This document shows, piece after piece, positions 4,952-44,690 of a stretch of DNA of 44,690 bases. Each line of letters begins with the position of its first letter. Positions within the stretch are counted from its first letter, which is position 1. This DNA is from Mycobacteriales bacterium (GTDB taxonomy: Bacteria > Actinomycetota > Actinomycetes > JALYNC01): contig JBPCOB010000133.1 in NCBI GenBank assembly GCA_051000715.1, forward strand, positions 1 to 44,690. Reading direction: 5' to 3'. Below the pieces are notes generated by a model, which worked only from the letters and a program-made list of their open reading frames with translations, did not search any database and had not been told where the DNA came from. The translations under genes and the position numbers were made by a program.

Positions 4952-5293
4952 ATGGCTTTCACCGATGCAGCACTGAATGCCGCTGTCGACGGTATCGCGG
5001 CGGCCGGGTCGTGGATCTCCGCGCACACCGCTGACCCTGTCGCCACGGGCACGGCTCAGGCCGGGACTCGGGTGCAGACCACGTGGGGTGCTGCCGGGTC
5101 GGGTGCGACCGGTGGGGATCGGACGGGTTCGCAGGTGAGCATCGGGGTCGCCGCCGGGGTCACGGTGACTCATTGGGGGCTGTGGTCGGCGACGGCGGCG
5201 GGGACGTTCTTGGGTGGTTTCGCGCTGGGTGCACCGGAGGCGTTCGGGGCGGCGGGGAACCTGCTGCTGACGCCGACCCTCGACGTCGACTGA
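4952..5293 (+). CDS. hypothetical Gly/Ala-rich protein (family often annotated as minor tail protein in actinophages)
   Basis: ORF 4952..5293 with RBS aagggagaa. The pattern MAFTDAALNAAVDGI...HTADPVATGTA...G resembles a recurrent actinophage family (recollection only). Confidence 0.55.
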   Translation: MAFTDAALNAAVDGIAAAGSWISAHTADPVATGTAQAGTRVQTTWGAAGSGATGGDRTGSQVSIGVAAGVTVTHWGLWSATAAGTFLGGFALGAPEAFGAAGNLLLTPTLDVD

Positions 5294-5302
5294 GGCTGAT
5301 TC

Positions 5303-7294
5303 GTGGCAACCGTCACGAAGACGTTCTCGTTCGCGGCGGGCGTAGAAAGTTTCACTGCCTCCTCCGACCGTGTTGCCGTAAGCACGTGGGATGGGGCTGT
5401 CGGCAATCCGCCGGGGTCACTGAGGTCGAGCGTAGCTGGGCGCAGCGCGTCTGGGTCGACGGACCGGTACACCGCCGGCTTCACGTGGATGGACCTCAAC
5501 GTCCCGGCTGGGGCCACGGTTACCGGGATACGGCTGCTGTCTCTGTCCACACGATGCACCGACTACACGATCGGCAGCACCACGCGTGTCGGACAGTGCT
5601 ACCTATATCTGTCTGGTTTTGGCAACATGGAGCTAGTCCCTGGTCGCAGTGTTGCCGGTGTCGACACGGGATGGCAGGTCACGCCGGCTCAAGCGCTGGT
5701 GGCGATTCCGGTGACGTCGCCGTCCACTGACAGCATCACAGTTGGTTTGTTCTCCGACCTCGCCACCGGCGCGAGCGCCAAGGCGGTCGTCACCGTCTAC
5801 GTTGACGAGCTGGTCCTGGAGACCACCTACACGCCGGCGGCCGCGACCGGGGAGACACACACGGCGACCGGGACGCGCGCACCCGCGCTGGTGGCCGCCC
5901 GCAGCACGGCGGCTACCCGCCGACCTGCGGCCCCCGTCGCAGCGGCCGTTGTCGTCGCGTCGGTGGCACGGGCCAGCATCCGCCCCCGCGTGGCCAGTGG
6001 CATCGCGACAGCCACCACCCGGGTCGCGGCGACCACCACCCGGACGAGGGCGAGCATCAGCGTCGCCGCGGCCTCGGCAACCAGTCAGCAGGTCGTCAAC
6101 CACCCCGTTACCGTCCGGGGCGGCGCGTCGACGGCCGCTAGTGCTGTCGTCACCACCCAGCATCCGGCTACCGTCGCTGCCACTGCCACCACCGACGGCC
6201 GGGCCGTCTCGGGTAGCAGCCGCCCGTCGAGCCGCCGCGCTTCCGCAACCGGGACCGCGCGCGCCACGACCACCAGCAGCCGGAGTCGACCGGTCACTGG
6301 ACCCGCAGCCGTTGGCGCACGGACCACAGCCGCGAGCACCCGGGCGTACGTGGCCACCGTCCCCGCGACGGCCGTAGCCCGCACCGCAGCGAGCAGCAGC
6401 CGCCCGAGGCCCGTCACCGCCCCAGCGACCACCACGGCACGCGCTAGCGTCACCACGGCCCGGACTCCCCCCTCGACCGCACCAGCGACGGTCACCGCCC
6501 GCGCCGGACTCACCACCGCCCACCCCCTGGCAGCCACCGCGCCAGCCACCGCGGTCGCCTCGGCCACTGCCACCAGTAGCCGACCAGTCACCGTCGCAGC
6601 CACCGGCACCGCCTCCGCTTCGGCGACCGTCGCCCGGGTTACCACCGACCATCCGGTCACCGGCCGCGCCGGAGTCGTCGCCACTACACGAGCCGTCACG
6701 GCCACCACCCGGACGTCGTCGAGCACCGCGCGTGCTACTACCGGCGCGGGCGTCGACAGTGCCAGCGACCGCCCCCGGACAGTCACCATCGCGGCCACCG
6801 TCAGCACCCGAGCCACGGCGAGCAGCAGCCGCCCCACAACCAGTACCGCGTCAGCCACGGCTACTAGCCGCGCCGTCACTGTCAGCGCCGCCACCCCGCC
6901 CGAAACTCACGCCACAACCGGACACGCCACCGCCACAGCCGCGGCCACGCACAGCCTGACCACGGTGCGAGTGGTCACCGGCACCGCACCAGCCCGGCTC
7001 GTCGCCGCGACCAGCACACTGACGACCCGCCTAGCCCTCGGCACCGCACCCGCAGTCACCCGCGGTAACGCCGTCACCGCCGCGGCCCCGCTGTACCGGC
7101 CGGCGCTCCACCCCCGAGCGACACTCTCATCCAACCGGACGGACGCGAACATGCGCATCACTCACCCGAGGGCAACCCTGACACCCAATCAGACGGACGC
7201 CATTCTGCGCGACGACACCACGGCGGCCACCCTCGCCCCCAACCAGACAGATGCCATCATTACCGACCACCACCCGAAGGCGGAACTCGCATGA
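5303..7294 (+). CDS. 663-aa protein: ~185-aa globular N-terminal domain plus ~430-aa Ala/Thr/Arg/Ser/Val low-complexity region and C-terminal tandem repeats
   Basis: ORF 5303..7294 with GTG start. Third-position C/G bias supports the plus frame over the mirror ORFs on the minus strand. SSRP(R)PVT-type units recur. Confidence 0.7.
   Translation: MATVTKTFSFAAGVESFTASSDRVAVSTWDGAVGNPPGSLRSSVAGRSASGSTDRYTAGFTWMDLNVPAGATVTGIRLLSLSTRCTDYTIGSTTRVGQCYLYLSGFGNMELVPGRSVAGVDTGWQVTPAQALVAIPVTSPSTDSITVGLFSDLATGASAKAVVTVYVDELVLETTYTPAAATGETHTATGTRAPALVAARSTAATRRPAAPVAAAVVVASVARASIRPRVASGIATATTRVAATTTRTRASISVAAASATSQQVVNHPVTVRGGASTAASAVVTTQHPATVAATATTDGRAVSGSSRPSSRRASATGTARATTTSSRSRPVTGPAAVGARTTAASTRAYVATVPATAVARTAASSSRPRPVTAPATTTARASVTTARTPPSTAPATVTARAGLTTAHPLAATAPATAVASATATSSRPVTVAATGTASASATVARVTTDHPVTGRAGVVATTRAVTATTRTSSSTARATTGAGVDSASDRPRTVTIAATVSTRATASSSRPTTSTASATATSRAVTVSAATPPETHATTGHATATAAATHSLTTVRVVTGTAPARLVAATSTLTTRLALGTAPAVTRGNAVTAAAPLYRPALHPRATLSSNRTDANMRITHPRATLTPNQTDAILRDDTTAATLAPNQTDAIITDHHPKAELA
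7109..7270 (+). repeat. three imperfect ~17-18-codon tandem repeats at the C-terminus of the 663-aa protein
   Basis: HPRATLSSNRTDANMRIT / HPRATLTPNQTDAILRDDT / TAATLAPNQTDAIITDHHP. Confidence 0.8.
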
Positions 7295-7590
7295 GAATGT
7301 TTCGCGGCGACCTGCTCCCCGACCTGCAGATCACCTGCACCGACAACGACGCCCCCGTCGACCTGACCACCGCTACCGGCATCCGAGTCATCGGCGTCAC
7401 AGCTGGCAAAGTCCTCTTCGACCGGGCCGTGACCGGCACAGCCAGCGGCCTGGTCACGATGGTCTGGGAGACGGCCGACACCGCCGCACCCGGACGCGTC
7501 GCCGTCGAGGTCGAGGTCACCTGGCCCGGGGTGCGTCCGCAGACTTTCCGGCCCGCGCAGGTTGTCGACATCGTTGCCGACTACGCCTGA
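7291..7590 (+). CDS. small beta-rich hypothetical protein (tail-accessory/Ig-like character), last gene of the late operon
   Basis: ORF 7291..7590 with ATGA overlap with the upstream gene. The pattern DLTTATGIRVIGV...VTMVWETADTAAPGRVAVEVEVTWPG resembles small baseplate-associated N-domains (weak). Confidence 0.6.
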   Translation: MRMFRGDLLPDLQITCTDNDAPVDLTTATGIRVIGVTAGKVLFDRAVTGTASGLVTMVWETADTAAPGRVAVEVEVTWPGVRPQTFRPAQVVDIVADYA

Positions 7591-7609
7591 ACCAACGCTC
7601 TCACCACCA

Positions 7610-7642
7610 CCCCCGTCACCCTTCCGTGGCGGGGGTCTTGTC
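7610..7642 (+). terminator. hairpin terminator candidate 1 after the late operon
   Basis: CCCCCGTCAC (7610-7619) pairs with GTGGCGGGGG (7626-7635). This gives a 10-bp stem with one G-U and loop CCTTCC, followed by TCTTGTC. Confidence 0.5.
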
Positions 7643-7714
7643 ATGTGCGGCAGACAGCAGGTACTGTCTGGAGTTCTAGCTGGGCTAACGCTCATACGGG
7701 ATGGGCTCCGGACC

Positions 7715-7759
7715 CGCCCCGCCACCTCACGGATGGCGGGGCGTATTTTTATGTCTTTT
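7715..7759. terminator. strong intrinsic terminator (plus strand, U-tract), possibly bidirectional for the convergent minus-strand operon
   Basis: CGCCCCGCCA (7715-7724) pairs perfectly with TGGCGGGGCG (7734-7743), with a 9-nt loop, followed by TATTTTTATGTCTTTT. Confidence 0.75.
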
Positions 7760-7804
7760 GGGCACTCAAGAGGCGCCGACGGCGGGGGCTTTCGCGCGTC
7801 CGGG

Positions 7805-8206
7805 TCAGGAAGCGTCGCAGGAGACAATGGCGTACTGCCCAGATGCAGTGTTCTTGGCGACCTGCTTGCCGTCGACCGTCACCGAGCATGTGATCGTGCC
7901 TCGGCCCTGGTTCTGCGCAGACAGGCTGTAGACCGAGAAGAACTCGTCCTTCACGGTGAACGCCTTGGTCCAGGGCAGCTTCTGGCCGTTCTCCTGGGAG
8001 ATGTTCGACCCGTCAGGCGTAGTGGAGAATGTCATGTCGGCACGCTTGGCCGTCCCACCGATCTTGTAGATGACCTTCGTCGTTGCGCTATCGGATCCAC
8101 CGCCGGACCCACCGCCACCACTGAGCGAGACCGCGACCACGACCACGATGATGACCACGACCAGGGCCACGATGCCCAGGCAGCCGACCTTGAAGATGCG
8201 TCCCAT
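7805..8206 (-). CDS. MmpS-like small membrane protein (N-terminal TM anchor plus beta-rich ectodomain with two Cys)
   Basis: ORF 7805..8206 minus. Features are the TM segment GCLGIVALVVVIIVVVVAV, a Gly/Ser linker, then VIYKIGGTAKRADMTF...QKLPWTKAF...ITCSVTVDGKQVAK...AIVSC, a typical MmpS pattern. Confidence 0.6.
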   Translation of the reverse strand: MGRIFKVGCLGIVALVVVIIVVVVAVSLSGGGGSGGGSDSATTKVIYKIGGTAKRADMTFSTTPDGSNISQENGQKLPWTKAFTVKDEFFSVYSLSAQNQGRGTITCSVTVDGKQVAKNTASGQYAIVSCDAS

Positions 8207-8265
8207 GAAGTCCCCCGTCCAGGGATCGAGTGCATTGGTCCGGCCACCGTACGCCTAATCGAGTG

Positions 8266-8275
8266 GTCATGAGAT
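8266..8275. repeat. 10-bp direct repeat GTCATGAGAT, copy at the stop codon of the HNH-like gene
   Basis: The identical decamer occurs at 8676-8685, overlapping the start codon of the same gene. Confidence 0.8.
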
Positions 8276-8680
8276 GACGTCGGCGGCCAAGACGGACCAT
8301 AGAAGGTCTGCCGACCTGCCGCCACCCCTGTGCGCCAACGCCACCACCCGCCCCCAGACGATGCGCTCCCACCTGTTCATCTGATCCCACCCTTCCGGCC
8401 AGCTCATCGGGGGGTCACCTAGCAGGGCGCTCCCGAGTATGCCCAGGTTTGCGAGGCGTCGCACGGCCGTGAGCCCCTCCTTGGCAGGCAATCCTCTGAG
8501 CCCACCGCGATCCTTGAGGTCGTGGCAGGTAACGCAAGCTGGGACCACTTCTTGCCCGCCTGCACACCGAGGGACTGGCGCGTGGTCGTGTTCGTGGCGA
8601 GTGCGTCCGAACGGGGCTGAGCAGTAGAAGCAACGCTCGCAGTCATCGTTTGCTAGCGGGGAATCGAGAGGATCTGTCAT
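8267..8680 (-). CDS. HNH-motif zinc-finger protein with uncharacterised C-terminal domain (137 aa)
   Basis: Start is the cat at 8678-8680. Motif is CERCFYC...HEHDHAPVPRCAGG...VPACVTCHDLK (CxxC, HxxDH, GG, CxxCH). The 234-aa ORF-track version runs antisense into the recombinase gene. Confidence 0.6.
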   Translation of the reverse strand: MTDPLDSPLANDDCERCFYCSAPFGRTRHEHDHAPVPRCAGGQEVVPACVTCHDLKDRGGLRGLPAKEGLTAVRRLANLGILGSALLGDPPMSWPEGWDQMNRWERIVWGRVVALAHRGGGRSADLLWSVLAADVIS

Positions 8681-8685
8681 GAGAT
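8676..8685. repeat. 10-bp direct repeat GTCATGAGAT, copy at the start codon of the HNH-like gene
   Basis: See 8266-8275. Confidence 0.8.
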
Positions 8686-8706
8686 CTAGTCTACGCGTGC
8701 GTGACC

Positions 8707-8712
8707 TATAAT
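8707..8712 (+). promoter_or_regulatory. perfect TATAAT -10 box, candidate leaderless promoter for recombinase 2
   Basis: TATAAT lies at 8707-8712, and the ATG at 8720 lies 7-8 nt downstream, which is the geometry of actinobacterial leaderless transcripts. No convincing -35 was found. Confidence 0.4.
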
Positions 8713-8719
8713 GGTGATT

Positions 8720-9529
8720 ATGGGAATAGGTGAGCCCGTAGACCGTCTCGTCGCCGACTGGCTGGACTACCTCGCGCATGAACGCAACCTGTCTGCGAAC
8801 ACCGTCGCCACCTACGCCCGGACGCTGCGCACCCTTTCCGGCGCGGACACCGCGACACGCGAAGACGTGGAGGCGTGGGCGCGTTCGCGCTCGCACCTGT
8901 CGCCTGCCACCCGGAACAACGAACTCTCGGCTGTTCGGAAGTTCTACCAGTGGTGTCGCATCTGGGGGCACCGGCCGGAGACCGACGATCCGACCCTGCG
9001 CCTGCTCGGGCCGAAGATGGCCAGCGGTCTGCCCCGGCCGATCTCAAGAGACGACCTGAACCGGCTGCTCGACACGTTGAAGGGCGACCTGCGCCGCACG
9101 GTCTGCCTCGGCGCCTATGCCGGGCTACGCGTCAGCGAGGCCGCGGCGCAGGTGTGGGAGGATGTCGACGTCGAGAACCGTCGCGTCCGCGTCACCGGAA
9201 AGGGACAGAAGACTCGACTAGTGGGGCTCTCGTCGCTGTTGCTCGACTCGCTGCTGCCTGACACTGGCGGCAGCGTCGTCACGGCTGGGGAGACGCCCTA
9301 CACGGCGGGAACGTTGCAGCGGAAGGTCAACCGGGCAATCGAGGCGGCAGGTGTGGACGTGACCTATCACCAGCTCCGGCACCGGTTCGGCACAGTAGCG
9401 CTGGGTGCGTCGGGCAACCTGCTCGCGGTGTCGCGGGCGATGGGTCACTCATCTCCGGCGACGACGGCGATCTACGCGGCCACCTCCGACTCTGATCTCG
9501 ACGTGATCGCCGAAGCCGTCACCCGTTAG
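8720..9529 (+). CDS. tyrosine recombinase 2 (XerC/D-like, ~270 aa; alternative start 8711)
   Basis: ORF 8711..9529. The catalytic set is present: AGLRVSE (Arg), GKGQKTR (Lys), HQLRHRF (His-x-x-Arg), GHSS (His), AIYA (Tyr). There is a SAM-like N-domain WLDYLAHERNLSANTV. Confidence 0.8.
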   Translation: MGIGEPVDRLVADWLDYLAHERNLSANTVATYARTLRTLSGADTATREDVEAWARSRSHLSPATRNNELSAVRKFYQWCRIWGHRPETDDPTLRLLGPKMASGLPRPISRDDLNRLLDTLKGDLRRTVCLGAYAGLRVSEAAAQVWEDVDVENRRVRVTGKGQKTRLVGLSSLLLDSLLPDTGGSVVTAGETPYTAGTLQRKVNRAIEAAGVDVTYHQLRHRFGTVALGASGNLLAVSRAMGHSSPATTAIYAATSDSDLDVIAEAVTR

Positions 9530-10338
9530 GCGGCGGCCGCTAGCATCGCGGCACGCACCGACTCGTCCGGGATCGCGACGTAGATCGCCGTGGTCTCCGG
9601 CTTCGCATGCCCGAGCAGCTCCTGGACGGCGCGCAGGTCGCGGGTGCCCGCGTAGGAGACGGTCGCGCACCGGTGCCTCAGGGTGTGCGTGGTCAGGTCA
9701 TCGGGCAGGCACCGGGTGACAAGCTTCCCAAGATGGTGCGGCGTCAGGTGCCCGCCGTGCGTGGACGGGAACAGCCAGCCCGGTGCGTGCTCGGTGATGA
9801 GCGCGGCGAGCTCGTCGGTCAGCGGCACCATCCGCACGTGCCCGCCCTTGCCGGTCACCCGCAGGCTCGACCCGAGCAGGTCGGGCTCCACGTGCTCGGT
9901 GCGGGTCCGGGCGATCTCGGCGCGCCGCAGGCCGCACTGCCCGGCGAGCAGGACCGCCAGCCGCACCCGTTCGTCGGCGATGGCCAGGGCGAGCCGGTAG
10001 GCGGCTTCCGGCGCCGGTCGTGGCTTCCCGCGGGGGACCCGGACCGGTGGCAGCAGGTGCGCCGGCGATGTGGTGACCCGTCCGGTGGCGGTCGCCCATC
10101 TGTAGAAGGCGCGCAGCGACCCTCGGTAGGCGCGCCGGGTGTTCGGTGCCCAGTCGTGGCCGGCGAGCCACGTCACGAGCTCGTCGAAGGTCAGTGTGGC
10201 CGGCCCTGTGCTCGTCTCCCGTGCGAGCCGGGTCAGGTGGTAGGTGCGTAGTCCGATGGTGGTCTCGGGGGAGCCGGTCGCGCGCAGGTAGTTCTCCCAC
10301 GCCGCGATGTGCTCGGTCCAGGTGCGTGTAGGTGTCAT
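9526..10338 (-). CDS. int: tyrosine integrase (recombinase 1), co-oriented with the repressor, C-terminus ...MLAAAA
   Basis: ORF 9526..10338 minus. Motifs are GLRRAEI (Arg), GKGGHVR (Lys), HTLRHRC, LGHAKP, AIYV (Tyr). Its stop overlaps the stop of recombinase 2 (TTAG at 9526-9529). Confidence 0.8.
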   Translation of the reverse strand: MTPTRTWTEHIAAWENYLRATGSPETTIGLRTYHLTRLARETSTGPATLTFDELVTWLAGHDWAPNTRRAYRGSLRAFYRWATATGRVTTSPAHLLPPVRVPRGKPRPAPEAAYRLALAIADERVRLAVLLAGQCGLRRAEIARTRTEHVEPDLLGSSLRVTGKGGHVRMVPLTDELAALITEHAPGWLFPSTHGGHLTPHHLGKLVTRCLPDDLTTHTLRHRCATVSYAGTRDLRAVQELLGHAKPETTAIYVAIPDESVRAAMLAAAA

Positions 10339-10365
10339 CTACGTCTGTTCCCCCGTGGCCGTGGG

Positions 10366-10725
10366 TCACGCCGCCGCGTAAAGTCGCAGGTCAGCGCGGT
10401 AATGCTCTAGGTCAGCGGGTTCGGGGTTCAAGTCCCTGCTGGCGCACACATCTGCCCCGTTCGGCCCGTTGGGGCTGGACGGGGCGTTTCCGTCTCTGAG
10501 CCATTCCAGCGGCACGCCGGTCCGCATGGCCCACACCTTGAGGTAGGCCGACTTCGGCGGTGCCCCACGGTCGGTCATCCATCGGCTGAGCGTGGCGCGA
10601 CTGACGCCTAGCTCATCGGCCATGTCCTCGACGCTGATGTCTCGCAGTGACATCTTGAGCCGCCACCCCAGCGTGAGCTGTGGGATCGTGCCGACTTCGC
10701 TTCGTAGATTGCTCATAGCAAGCAT
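10366..10725 (-). CDS. HTH immunity repressor (119 aa), C-terminus ...RLYAAA
   Basis: ORF 10366..10725 minus. HTH is SVEDMADELGVSRATLSRWMTDRG. It is divergent from a Cro/Xis-like gene and sits upstream of int in the same orientation. Confidence 0.7.
   Translation of the reverse strand: MLAMSNLRSEVGTIPQLTLGWRLKMSLRDISVEDMADELGVSRATLSRWMTDRGAPPKSAYLKVWAMRTGVPLEWLRDGNAPSSPNGPNGADVCASRDLNPEPADLEHYRADLRLYAAA
10422..10448 (+). other. putative attP common core: mimic of the 3' end of a tRNA gene, located inside the repressor ORF
   Basis: CGGGGTTCAAGTCCCTGCTGGCGCACA reads as T-stem, T-loop TTCAAGT, T-stem CCCTG, acceptor strand CTGGCGC and discriminator A. No D-arm, anticodon arm or 5' acceptor strand lies upstream. 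Confidence 0.6.
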
Positions 10726-10763
10726 GGTGGCCCATGTGACGTATGTGCGTCAAGTGGTCAGGG

Positions 10764-10791
10764 TTGAAAGATTCTCGGGCGTGGCTATTGC
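10764..10791 (+). promoter_or_regulatory. candidate rightward early promoter in the switch region
   Basis: TTGAAA (10764-10769), a 16-nt spacer, then TATTGC (10786-10791). The -10 is weak. TGTGAC/TGTGCG-type short repeats flank it (10735, 10745, 10797, 10806). Confidence 0.3.
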
Positions 10792-10822
10792 GCGCCGTGC
10801 GACATTGTGACATGGTTCCGTC

Positions 10823-11008
10823 ATGGCACACGACGAGCTCATCACCAGCCCCGAAGCCGGAGCCATCCTCTGCCGCTCCGCCCGCACCGTCCACCGACTC
10901 GTCGAAGCCGGCGCGCTGGTCCCCGTCAAGCAGCTCTCCGGCCCCAACGGCGCTTATCTCTTCCGTCGCGCCGATGTCGAAAACTTGGCGAAGAGGGTGC
11001 CGGCATGA
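10823..11008 (+). CDS. small HTH protein (excisionase-family fold), Cro-like or Xis-like first gene of the rightward operon
   Basis: ORF 10823..11008. Motif is ITSPEAGAILCRSARTVHRLVEAGAL...YLFRRADVENL. Confidence 0.6.
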   Translation: MAHDELITSPEAGAILCRSARTVHRLVEAGALVPVKQLSGPNGAYLFRRADVENLAKRVPA

Positions 11009-11280
11009 CACCAGCGGGATATGCAGACGCCAGCCCCAACCTCCGGGCAGATGGAGAGCGAGAGACCGAGTTCCTCTCACCCCGCGTGCTGATGCGTGAG
11101 GCCGCCAAGGTCTGTGACGACCTCGGCCTCAGCATTCGCGGCGCACGTCTGCGCTCGATGATCGACCGCTTCGTCACTGAGGGCCGCGGCGACATCGACT
11201 TCCGCACGTGGTTCATCGCCTACGCCGACCCCACCGGTGAGACCGCAGTCCGCAACGTCATGCGAGAGGAACGGCCATGA
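11005..11280 (+). CDS. hypothetical protein (91 aa)
   Basis: ATG 11005 overlaps the upstream stop (ATGA). Frame of ORF 10807..11280. Confidence 0.6.
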   Translation: MTPAGYADASPNLRADGERETEFLSPRVLMREAAKVCDDLGLSIRGARLRSMIDRFVTEGRGDIDFRTWFIAYADPTGETAVRNVMREERP

Positions 11281-11681
11281 ACAACCACGCGAAGCGCTGC
11301 ATCAAGAACCTCGAAGCGCTCGGCTTCTATCGCGATCACGACGCGCAGACTCGCGGACTCGCCTACCGGCACCCGAACGCCCCCGACCAGGTGCTCAAAG
11401 TGTTCGACCAGATGACGGACTCCACGATCACGTCCGTCATTCGCAAGGCGAACAAGATCGCGGACACCGGCTGGTCCGGCCCACGGCAGCCCGAGACGGT
11501 CAAAGAGCGTGCGCGGGTCACGCACTCCAAGAACAAGTCGCAATGGCAGCGCGAGGACGAGGCGCGCCGAGCACGCGCAGAGGTGGCCGAGCGTGCACAT
11601 GAGGACCGAAGTCGGACCGAAGTCGAGACGGAACATCGCCGCGAAGTTGAAGATCTCATGCAGCCGGGTTACGGCCGATGA
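11277..11681 (+). CDS. hypothetical protein with Arg/Glu-rich C-terminal helix (134 aa)
   Basis: ORF 11277..11681 with ATGA overlaps on both sides. Confidence 0.6.
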   Translation: MNNHAKRCIKNLEALGFYRDHDAQTRGLAYRHPNAPDQVLKVFDQMTDSTITSVIRKANKIADTGWSGPRQPETVKERARVTHSKNKSQWQREDEARRARAEVAERAHEDRSRTEVETEHRREVEDLMQPGYGR

Positions 11682-12604
11682 GCGCCGAGGTCGCCGTCAC
11701 TCCATCGACCGACCTGGCCATCGAGCAGATGGCGCGCATCGACCAGCGCATCGACAGCCATGAGGGCGAAGCACTGCGGGATCGCTGGGAGTTCGGTCGG
11801 CACATGCTCGCCGCACGTGACGGAGCGGGCCGGCTGCCGAACGGCTACCTGTCGGCACTGGTGGGACGCACCGGGAAGAGCCGCGCCGAGTTGAAGTTCA
11901 GGGCACAGTTCGCAGCTACCTACGCCACGGAGGCAGAACTGGCTAACGCGTTAGCCAGTTCCAACTCATGGCGGGGAATCGTCGCAACGCTCAAGAAGGC
12001 CAAGGATGCCGAGGACAACATCATCTCCGCGCCCGAGCCAGCCGCCGGAGGACTGGTCGGGACCATCGTCGCGGACCCGCCGTGGTCGTACGGCAACACG
12101 TCCACCCGTGGTGCCGCCGAGAACCACTACCGGACGATGAGCATTGAGGAGTTGTGCGACCTCGGCGTGGCCCGCGAGCGTGCTGCTGCACAGTCGCATC
12201 TCTATCTCTGGTCCACCGCCGGGCACCTATCCGAAGCCTTCAAGGTGATGGCGGCATGGGGGTTCACCTACAAGACCTATCTCGTCTGGGTCAAGCCGCA
12301 GATGGGGATGGGTAACTACTTCCGAGTCTCCACCGAACTGGTGCTGTTCGGCGTCAAAGGTGGGCTGCGAACCACCGAGCGGAACATCAAGAACTACTTC
12401 ACCGAGCCGCGGCAGAAGCACTCCGCCAAGCCGCTCTCGTTCCAGGACATCGTTGCCAGAACCAGCCCCGGACCCTACCTAGAGCTGTTCGCCCGCTGTC
12501 AGAAAGACGGGCTGTTCGCCGGCTGCCAGAAAGACGGGCTGTTCGCCGGCTGTCTGTGTTCCAAGTGTCGCCTTGGCTGGGAGACGTGGGGGAATCAGTC
12601 ATGA
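11678..12604 (+). CDS. MT-A70 family N6-adenine DNA methyltransferase with ~130-aa N-terminal extension
   Basis: Motifs are IVADPPWSY (DPPW catalytic motif), HLYLW and ELVLFG, with ...YLELFAR...GWETWGNQ at the C-terminus. Confidence 0.8.
   Translation: MSAEVAVTPSTDLAIEQMARIDQRIDSHEGEALRDRWEFGRHMLAARDGAGRLPNGYLSALVGRTGKSRAELKFRAQFAATYATEAELANALASSNSWRGIVATLKKAKDAEDNIISAPEPAAGGLVGTIVADPPWSYGNTSTRGAAENHYRTMSIEELCDLGVARERAAAQSHLYLWSTAGHLSEAFKVMAAWGFTYKTYLVWVKPQMGMGNYFRVSTELVLFGVKGGLRTTERNIKNYFTEPRQKHSAKPLSFQDIVARTSPGPYLELFARCQKDGLFAGCQKDGLFAGCLCSKCRLGWETWGNQS
12495..12548 (+). repeat. 27-bp tandem duplication (2 full units, partial units on both flanks) inside the methylase 3' end
   Basis: gctgtcagaaagacgggctgttcgccg / gctgccagaaagacgggctgttcgccg, with 1 mismatch. 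It encodes CQKDGLFAG twice. Confidence 0.9.
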
Positions 12605-44076: not shown

Positions 44077-44690
44077 GTGAAAACCCAGGAGGATGGCCAG
44101 GCTGACCTCACCGCCGACGACTACGCCGATCGCGCGACCCGCAACGAGGGGCGCCTGGTCGGCCTGGAGCGCCTAGTCGCGGAGACCCGCGAGTCCGACC
44201 GAAAACTCACCGAGCAGCGGTCCGAGTCGCTGGCCCGCGAGTTGGAGCGGCGCGCCGATGCCCTGCGGGAACTGGTGACGGCCCACGCCGACGCCGTGAC
44301 CAGCCTCGGGCGGGAGGAGCGACGAGCCGACCGTCTCCATGTGGAGACGGTCACCACTGAGGCCGAGAAGCGCGGCCAGCTGGCGCTCGGACTTCTCCGC
44401 GAGGTCTACGACACCGCGCTCGAAAAGAATTACGAGCAGTCCCGCGAAGCAATCACCGGCCTTGAGCAGCGCCGCACTGCCGAGGTGGCCAAAATTGAGC
44501 AGATGGTCCGCCAGTGGCGCGACTCTGACCGCGAGGCACGGGAGTTGTTCGCCGCCGAGCTGGCCCGCCACCTGGACGCGCTGAACCACAACAACGAGCG
44601 GATGCGGGAGTTCCAGACAAACTCGGTTACCCGTGAGCTGTGGCAGTCGGAGAAGGATGCTGCAATCACCCGCGAAGGACTCCTGCGTGA
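44077..44690 (+). CDS. tail-anchored coiled-coil membrane protein, N-terminal part (continues at base 128 after removing the overlap; ~300 aa total)
   Basis: GTG 44077 (alternative GTG 44041) opens a frame with no stop to the window end. It is in phase with ORF 39..416 and encodes a charged heptad-like sequence (LERLVAETRESDRKLTEQRSESLARELERRADALREL...). Confidence 0.65.
   Translation, partial: MKTQEDGQADLTADDYADRATRNEGRLVGLERLVAETRESDRKLTEQRSESLARELERRADALRELVTAHADAVTSLGREERRADRLHVETVTTEAEKRGQLALGLLREVYDTALEKNYEQSREAITGLEQRRTAEVAKIEQMVRQWRDSDREARELFAAELARHLDALNHNNERMREFQTNSVTRELWQSEKDAAITREGLLR
44564..44690. repeat. terminal overlap copy B (identical to 1..127)
   Basis: See copy A. Confidence 0.95.

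Follow-up and report, generated by a model that had tools for sequence, protein, structure and literature searches.

Why does the 3' end of a transfer RNA (tRNA) gene lie, with no 5' half beside it, inside the gene of a phage repressor? The question is raised by contig JBPCOB010000133.1 (GenBank assembly GCA_051000715.1, Mycobacteriales bacterium), a stretch of 44,690 nucleotides (nt) that is called the window here. In it a tRNA-like segment runs antisense through a repressor gene (rep, protein Rep) at 10366–10725 on the minus strand, which is followed on the same strand by an integrase gene (int, protein Int) at 9526–10338. A first-pass annotation had taken the segment for the core of a phage attachment site (attP) and the arrangement for integration-dependent immunity, as known from the mycobacteriophages BPs (cluster G), Brujita (I1), and Charlie (N) (Broussard et al., 2013, as summarised in PMC3694055 and PMC4557955). 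This form of immunity has been described for clusters G, I, N, and P and for many Gordonia phages (PMC4557955, PMC3694055, PMC5559632). Taken together, the evidence makes it very probable that the window represents a temperate siphovirus-like phage, with a host probably of Marmoricola type, whose genome is complete and not integrated (attP form) and harbours a cassette for integration-dependent immunity like that of BPs, Brujita, and Charlie.

The tRNA-like segment occupies 10422–10448 on the plus strand, where CGGGGTTCAAGTCCCTGCTGGCGCACA provides a T stem (CGGGG/CCCTG), a T loop (TTCAAGT), a 7-nt acceptor strand (CTGGCGC), and a discriminator A; all that had been stated about this sequence, including the missing 5' half and the antisense position in the repressor open reading frame (ORF), proved correct. 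ARAGORN found no complete tRNA in the whole window, and the 5' tRNA half is not present. The motif GGTTCRANYCC has a single occurrence in the 44.7 kb, at the core, and the sole Rfam match was a sub-threshold one between the core and the tRNA-like family mascRNA (E = 0.5). A search with the 35 nt at 10412–10446 in one genome per species, covering 185,579 species, gave 16 exact genome matches in Marmoricola/Nocardioidaceae genomes and metagenome-assembled genomes (MAGs), and every one of them is the 3' end of a tRNA-Lys(CTT) gene, which is the exact match to a single tRNA gene that the first reading had anticipated. Its estimate of the extent held for the tRNA-like segment, and the true identity is longer: its first position is 10412, within the anticodon stem (3' strand), and it continues to the discriminator, ending at 10446 or, in several host genomes that share two further nucleotides (CA), at 10448. 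The attP common core, aligned with the bacterial attachment site (attB) and with the left and right prophage junctions (attL and attR) of relatives, is therefore placed at 10412–10448 (plus strand) and measures 35–37 base pairs (bp). To the left of 10412 the phage (...gctctagg) diverges from the tRNA (...actcttaa). The segment 10422–10448 is antisense to repressor codons 93–102, and the whole core falls within codons 93–105. Since the 35-nt match to a Marmoricola-type tRNA-Lys(CTT) is exact, a Marmoricola-like host is predicted, and on the basis of this identity the host is probably Marmoricola or a close relative in the Nocardioidaceae.

Within the core, the T arm forms an imperfect dyad at 10422–10438 (plus strand), read from the sequence as CGGGG and CCCTG separated by the 7-nt spacer TTCAAGT. 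This dyad is likely the region of Int core binding and strand exchange, with the crossover point probably in the T-loop spacer. A direct repeat, AGGTCAGCG, occurs at 10388–10396 and 10409–10417, 21 bp apart, one copy in the P arm and the other at the left edge of the core, and a GGTCAG motif ~21 nt left of the core is also seen in four related loci (L023, L025, L017, and L018; relatives are referred to by locus numbers with L and repressor homologues by protein numbers with P). The repeat and the motif could reflect a coding constraint on the ADLRL tail of the repressor, or could be an accessory Int-binding site.

The viral form of the immunity repressor is 119 amino acids (aa) long if translation begins at the ATG at 10725; in the database the gene is called from MSNL at 10716, with 116 aa, and this second ATG is the more likely start. 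The protein matches Pfam HTH_3 and Phage_CI_repr as well as PHROG 2328 ("transcriptional repressor"), with the helix-turn-helix (HTH) at residues ~27–76 and a C terminus ...EPADLEHYRADLRLYAAA that ends in RLYAAA. Only HTH families were matched in the 119 aa, with no Pfam match to the peptidase S24 domain of the lambda CI/LexA-type autocleavage; judged by its sequence, a repressor of this size leaves no room for such a domain and is not of the lambda CI/LexA type.

The consequence of integration for this protein can be read from an attL that joins, in silico, the 5' half of the tRNA to the core and the right arm of the phage. The junction restores an intact tRNA-Lys, and the repressor frame now continues through ...CASRDLNPEPAD to a TAA stop that the anticodon loop supplies in antisense (cTTAAg), directly after ...NPEPAD. 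The repressor is thereby shortened from 119 to 105 aa (102 from MSNL); the HTH is kept and the last 14 residues, LEHYRADLRLYAAA, are lost, which bears out the earlier claim that the crossover truncates the repressor and removes its Ala-Ala-Ala end. Codons 106–119 with their stop (10366–10410, minus strand) make up the repressor 3' part, which carries an ssrA-like tag and stays with int at attR according to the in-silico attL and to the remnants in L017 and L018. The tail itself has homologous counterparts in L023 and L025. The anticodon-loop stop (UUAA to TAA; 10409–10413 with the host tRNA) comes in the same frame whether the target is tRNA-Lys(CTT), tRNA-Lys(TTT) (L032, 4233–4307), or tRNA-Asn(GTT) (L019).

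Junctions of this kind are present in integrated relatives, at the tRNA-like core as had been foreseen, with a truncated repressor at attL and a tag remnant with int at attR. In Isoptericola sp. NPDC058082 (L032, P0205) the truncated repressor gene and a complete tRNA-Lys(TTT) gene of the opposite strand overlap, the stop is the TTAA of the anticodon loop, and host genes lie beyond. The repressor of L022 (P0025) overlaps a complete tRNA-Arg(ACG), the reading frames of the repressors P0158 and P0015 enter anticodon arms of host type where their contigs end, and L031 is likewise counted among the attL junctions. A related repressor in the Marmoricola MAG L003 abuts the very tRNA-Lys that the window phage targets. 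On the attR side, L017 (Calidifontibacter) and L018 have int at the prophage edge, and directly upstream of it a remnant of the repressor tail, an incomplete tRNA-Lys (3' end), and the terminator of the host, with no full tRNA. Phage-form relatives complete the picture: in L023 and L025 the Int is 67–68% identical to that of the window and the repressors only about 34%, and the repressor tails are still homologous to the window tail (...EPADVRHLHADLQLWSAA and ...EPADMVHLGSDLRLVA). Tails and Int that are conserved despite divergent repressors suggest that attP, tag, and int travel as a linked module.

The same two states are found among the repressor proteins of the databases. Many homologues carry the peptide RD(S/L)NPEPAD, which is the translated antisense of the T arm, variable loop, and anticodon stem of tRNA-Lys, and several family members without an -AA end terminate exactly at the tRNA-antisense peptide (P0158 at ...RDLNPEPAD, P0205 at ...RGSNPEPAD, P0234 and P0244 at ...LDSNQKPAG). 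Long counterparts of the ...LDSNQKPAG repressors (P0203, P0229, P0245, and P0247) read on to -AA. The idea that a short homologue is always the tRNA-terminated prophage form was ruled out by P0020, which has no tRNA alongside. This 82-aa repressor homologue occurs in Streptosporangiaceae MAGs (L020, 5001–5249; L021, 1740–1988) without an -AA end and without an adjacent tRNA, and the ORF after it, of 354 aa and without a match to any family, is on the opposite strand; these loci probably use a different arrangement. A single-protein search for repressor relatives in viral_contigs gave no match, and the alignment was too variable for search patterns.

The integrase that would carry out the crossover is a small tyrosine recombinase of 270 aa (Phage_integrase match) that begins 27 bp past the repressor stop, in the same orientation, and ends in MLAAAA; this end, like that of the repressor, is as the first-pass annotation had read it. 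Int matches only a catalytic domain and, weakly, a SAM-like core-binding domain, no arm-binding domain was detected by family matches, and the P arm, which separates int from the core, has a length of about 75 bp. The homologues detected number more than 1,600 for the integrase and more than 1,800 for the repressor, and most of those with the best scores have an -AA end. The abundance of such ends has to be set against an ordinary explanation, in which a tRNA-targeting integration module overlaps rep through genome compactness, the full-length Rep is stable and active, the Ala ends follow from the 67% G+C content of the window, and immunity is independent of integration. The 3' ends of tRNA genes are the commonest attB sites of tyrosine integrases, and alanine is abundant in high-GC proteomes. 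Moreover, the L003 repressor (5303–5581, minus strand) reads the same tRNA-Lys core (tRNA at 5265–5338) in another frame and meets a TGA stop inside the core, so that integration may leave that protein unchanged; overlap of a repressor with a tRNA core alone does not guarantee tag removal. Within the window, however, -AA ends only Rep and Int among about 45 ORFs, and it is kept in 91 of 127 repressor homologues and in 97 of the 120 closest Int homologues despite differing tail sequence and length, extended tails such as ...AAADDPAA and ...GTGPRAA included. With the repressor subfamilies described above, in which long (-AA) forms have short (tRNA-terminated) counterparts, and with the homology of both proteins to those of phages in which the mechanism has been shown experimentally (PMC4557955), we regard the ordinary explanation as improbable.

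How closely, then, does the window resemble the known systems? The features listed for them (PMC9934374, PMC3694055) are all found here at the sequence level, namely attP in rep, a bacterial stop at attL, a viral Rep that ends in -AA, a tag on Int too, and the rep-int/cro layout. The order rep (10725–10366), int (10338–9526), and a divergent HTH_17 gene is that of McGonagall, Liefie, and Fishburne. With the BPs type the window shares the ~2-kb unit of three genes, rep and int leftwards and cro rightwards, the attP inside the rep ORF, the attB in a tRNA gene, and the ssrA-like -AA tags on Rep and Int. The differences lie in the repressor, where the viral and prophage forms measure 119 and 105 aa against 136 and 103 aa in BPs and integration removes 14 residues instead of 33, and in the control region, which has 97 bp against about 200 bp. 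Further differences are the host, predicted to belong to the Nocardioidaceae (Propionibacteriales) rather than to Mycobacterium, and the extra tyrosine recombinase that adjoins the cassette, and the window phage is known from sequence alone. The Int of the window is 45% identical to gp32 of cluster G (Liefie).

Gordonia cluster CW (McGonagall, Jeanie, GMA5, and GRU3) has the closest Int homologues among sequenced phages, with 50–55% identity over 93–98% of the protein. These phages also have attP inside the repressor, with a 37-bp core targeting tRNA-Lys (PMC5559632), compared with 35–37 bp in tRNA-Lys for the window. The McGonagall repressor reads the core in the same frame as the window (...AIRDSNPEPADRLLSLVAA and ...CASRDLNPEPADLEHYRADLRLYAAA, respectively) and ends in ...RDSNPEPADRLLSLVAA. 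On the other hand, CW genomes are about 17 kb and the window phage 44.6 kb, there is no DNA-level similarity, the T loop and acceptor strand of the CW host tRNA-Lys are TTCGAGT/ATGGCGC instead of TTCAAGT/CTGGCGC, and in McGonagall a minor tail gene comes directly after int, with no second recombinase in the region compared. The best repressor homologues among sequenced phages are in cluster P (Fishburne gp31 and relatives; 46% identity over 83% of the protein), which shares the rep-int order, the divergent HTH_17 gene, and the -AA ends of both Rep and Int. The Fishburne integrase is a different and larger protein (318 aa), the host is not that of the window phage, and the tRNA-like core in its rep ORF differs from the window core, implying a different attB. 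The proposed likeness to BPs, Brujita, and Charlie is thus upheld by homology to proteins of Gordonia CW and of Mycobacterium G and P phages and by the -AA ends conserved in both families.

If the cassette works as in these phages, the following course of events is expected. Crossover by Int within the core would leave an intact tRNA-Lys at attL and give the repressor a stop from the anticodon loop, and the tag-coding remnant and int would end up about 44 kb away at attR. By analogy with BPs, the -AA tails would mark Rep and Int of the free phage for ClpXP-type proteolysis, so that the outcome of an infection would hinge on Int acting before its degradation, and immunity would arise only if integration came first. 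After integration a tagless Rep would, as in BPs, be stable and shut off the rightward lytic promoter, while int would be cut off from the repressor promoter, which would keep the prophage stable.

Several observations, together with the frame of the L003 repressor, weigh against this account. The C termini of Rep and Int are YAAA and LAAAA, compared with the canonical LAA. A consensus promoter and terminator scan of 8100–11300 returned no sites, and hence no sigma-70-type promoter in the 97-bp control region. The protein in the Cro position is of an excisionase-like type and may possibly serve as a recombination directionality factor (RDF), judging from its family. The known systems are characterised by a simple integrase that lacks an arm-binding domain and by the absence of a separate xis/RDF, of cII, and of cIII. 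The predicted attL junction (52 nt comprising anticodon loop, core, and phage arm) had no match in viral_contigs or metagenome_contigs, and no lysogen of the exact window phage was found in these sets. Finally, a second intact recombinase gene next to int could in principle integrate the phage at another site.

This second gene, at 8711–9529 on the plus strand, encodes a Xer-like tyrosine recombinase of 272 aa whose family match is below the XerC/XerD cut-offs and which ends in AVTR, with no -AA tag. It converges on int, the stop codons of the two genes overlapping, and its product has all catalytic motifs intact and is 30% identical to Int. A perfect TATAAT is present at 8707–8712, directly upstream of the in-frame ATG at 8720, and the recombinase may be made from its own promoter on a leaderless mRNA starting at MGIGEP. 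The convergent pair recurs, beside a cassette of similar kind and with Ints of varying relatedness, in L027 (2053–2841; 48% identity), L033 (3974–4792; 70%), L039, L060, and L094. The first-pass annotation had regarded the additional recombinase as a new twist, which it is not, as Gordonia phage Bowser offers a precedent: there a leftward AA-tagged Int/Rep cassette stands beside a second, rightward, and apparently intact tyrosine integrase (PMC4982277, PMC5559632). The second integrases of Bowser and the window are no orthologues, sharing about 35% identity across 133 residues, in the catalytic region only. A small gene separates the two integrases of Bowser, and neither has an identifiable attP or attB, whereas the tagged Int of the window has a clear attP and attB.

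The second recombinase is the basis of another explanation, in which the tRNA-like segment is a relic, integration proceeds by way of an attP elsewhere, and the rep-int cassette is partly or wholly vestigial. Besides its intact catalytic motifs, it is better conserved than Int across L027 and L033 (48–70% against 35–40%), and members of its family occupy the integrase position behind HTH repressors ending in Ala (-VAA in L097 and -AMA in L066) or, in L060, lie about 100 nt from a tRNA-Arg-like fragment; from these sequences the family looks like integrases in their own right. Against this stand the 35-nt core, whose 100% match to a tRNA gene of living hosts, seen in 16 genomes, argues for current use, the intact Int ORF with its conserved -AA end, and the relatives with an Int of the window family that are integrated exactly at the core. 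Nor was a second attP-like element found for the second recombinase, with no second T-loop motif or tRNA-like fragment in the window and no conserved non-coding DNA block upstream of it in 80 related loci; inverted repeats in 7000–11300 are weak or explained by the two convergent recombinase genes. That the tRNA-like segment is a relic is consequently very improbable.

As for what the second recombinase does beside Int, the idea that it is an obligate partner of the tagged Int was tried and abandoned: by tblastn a convergent Int stands beside only 4 of 80 related loci (L039, L048, L060, and L094), many of these metagenome loci having too little downstream sequence to judge and several long ones being without a convergent Int. 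That it is a working part of the lysogeny module, either as a second integrase acting at an attachment site of its own or as a partner of the arm-less tagged Int in resolution or excision, we consider rather unlikely. Broussard and Hatfull reportedly proposed a "duplicated int cassette" step in the evolution of complex switches, and if the second recombinase were functional the window could be a natural intermediate of that step. In three phage-form relatives of about 40 kb with the same Int family and a tRNA-Lys-type attP, the gene after int encodes not a tyrosine recombinase but a small serine recombinase (PF00239, about 210 aa; L023, 4958–5593; L024, 1043–1678; L025, 4949–5575).

The control region between rep and the divergent gene covers 97 bp (10726–10822), and divergent promoters and operators are presumed there from the layout only. 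An inverted repeat, CCATGTGAC/GTGACATGG, flanks this region at 10732–10740 and 10807–10815 and is, from its sequence and position, a candidate pair of operator half-sites. A 16-bp operator pattern picked by eye did not hold up, and the 9-bp inverted repeat alone is real. The gene in the Cro position (10823–11008, plus strand) encodes a 61-aa HTH_17 protein (Pfam HTH_17; PHROG 4691 and 66) and occupies the same place as gp32 of Fishburne and gp34 of Liefie; the gp32 of cluster P belongs to the same type and is annotated as "excisionase and transcriptional regulator".

The contig as a whole has the form of a free phage genome. Its ends (1–127 and 44564–44690) share an exact direct overlap of 127 bp, which indicates a circularly closed assembly in attP form with ~44,563 bp (~44.56 kb) of unique sequence, and no near-identical DNA relative was found among sequenced phages. 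The source is a metagenomic contig, and it might be suspected that the tRNA fragment belongs to the host, either through chimerism or mis-assembly or because a prophage took host DNA along on excision, but in view of the terminal overlap, of the fact that only the 3' 35–37 nt of the tRNA are present, in frame within a conserved repressor ORF, and of the same attP-in-rep layout with homologous tails in the independent L023, L025, and McGonagall, this is extremely improbable. Gene order was judged from ORF size, position, and reading by eye, annotation having covered the ORFs at 7805–12604. On this basis, genes for terminase, portal, capsid, tape measure, and tail likely lie at about 24–44 kb, and the lysis genes probably at about 1–7 kb. 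The integration and immunity cassette at 8.7–10.7 kb is likely oriented leftward, and the early genes likely run rightward from 10.8 kb.

Adjoining the lysogeny module, 7805–8206 (minus strand) encodes a leftward 133-aa protein with a hydrophobic N-terminal segment (PHROG 8241, function unknown), which may be a membrane or exclusion protein expressed from the prophage. Between this gene and the second recombinase, the ORF at 8267–8680 (minus strand) shows a CxxC...HEHDH...CxxCH pattern that by eye is HNH endonuclease-like, and had no Pfam or PHROGs match. A DNA methyltransferase (11678–12604, plus strand; PHROG 359) is among the first rightward early genes.

What the finding adds concerns the range of the switch, whose known mechanism it leaves unchanged. 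Both switch protein families are very common in metagenomes, and paired viral and prophage forms of the repressor are clear in the databases. The exact 35-nt attB match amounts to a host prediction for an uncultured phage, and a vector for integration at tRNA-Lys in Nocardioidaceae-type actinobacteria could be built on the compact Int-attP pair. Within the evidence gathered, a simple lysis/lysogeny switch, defined by experiment and known from Mycobacterium and Gordonia phages, is extended to a predicted phage of the Nocardioidaceae (Marmoricola), which in Int, attP, and its tRNA-Lys target is closest to Gordonia cluster CW.

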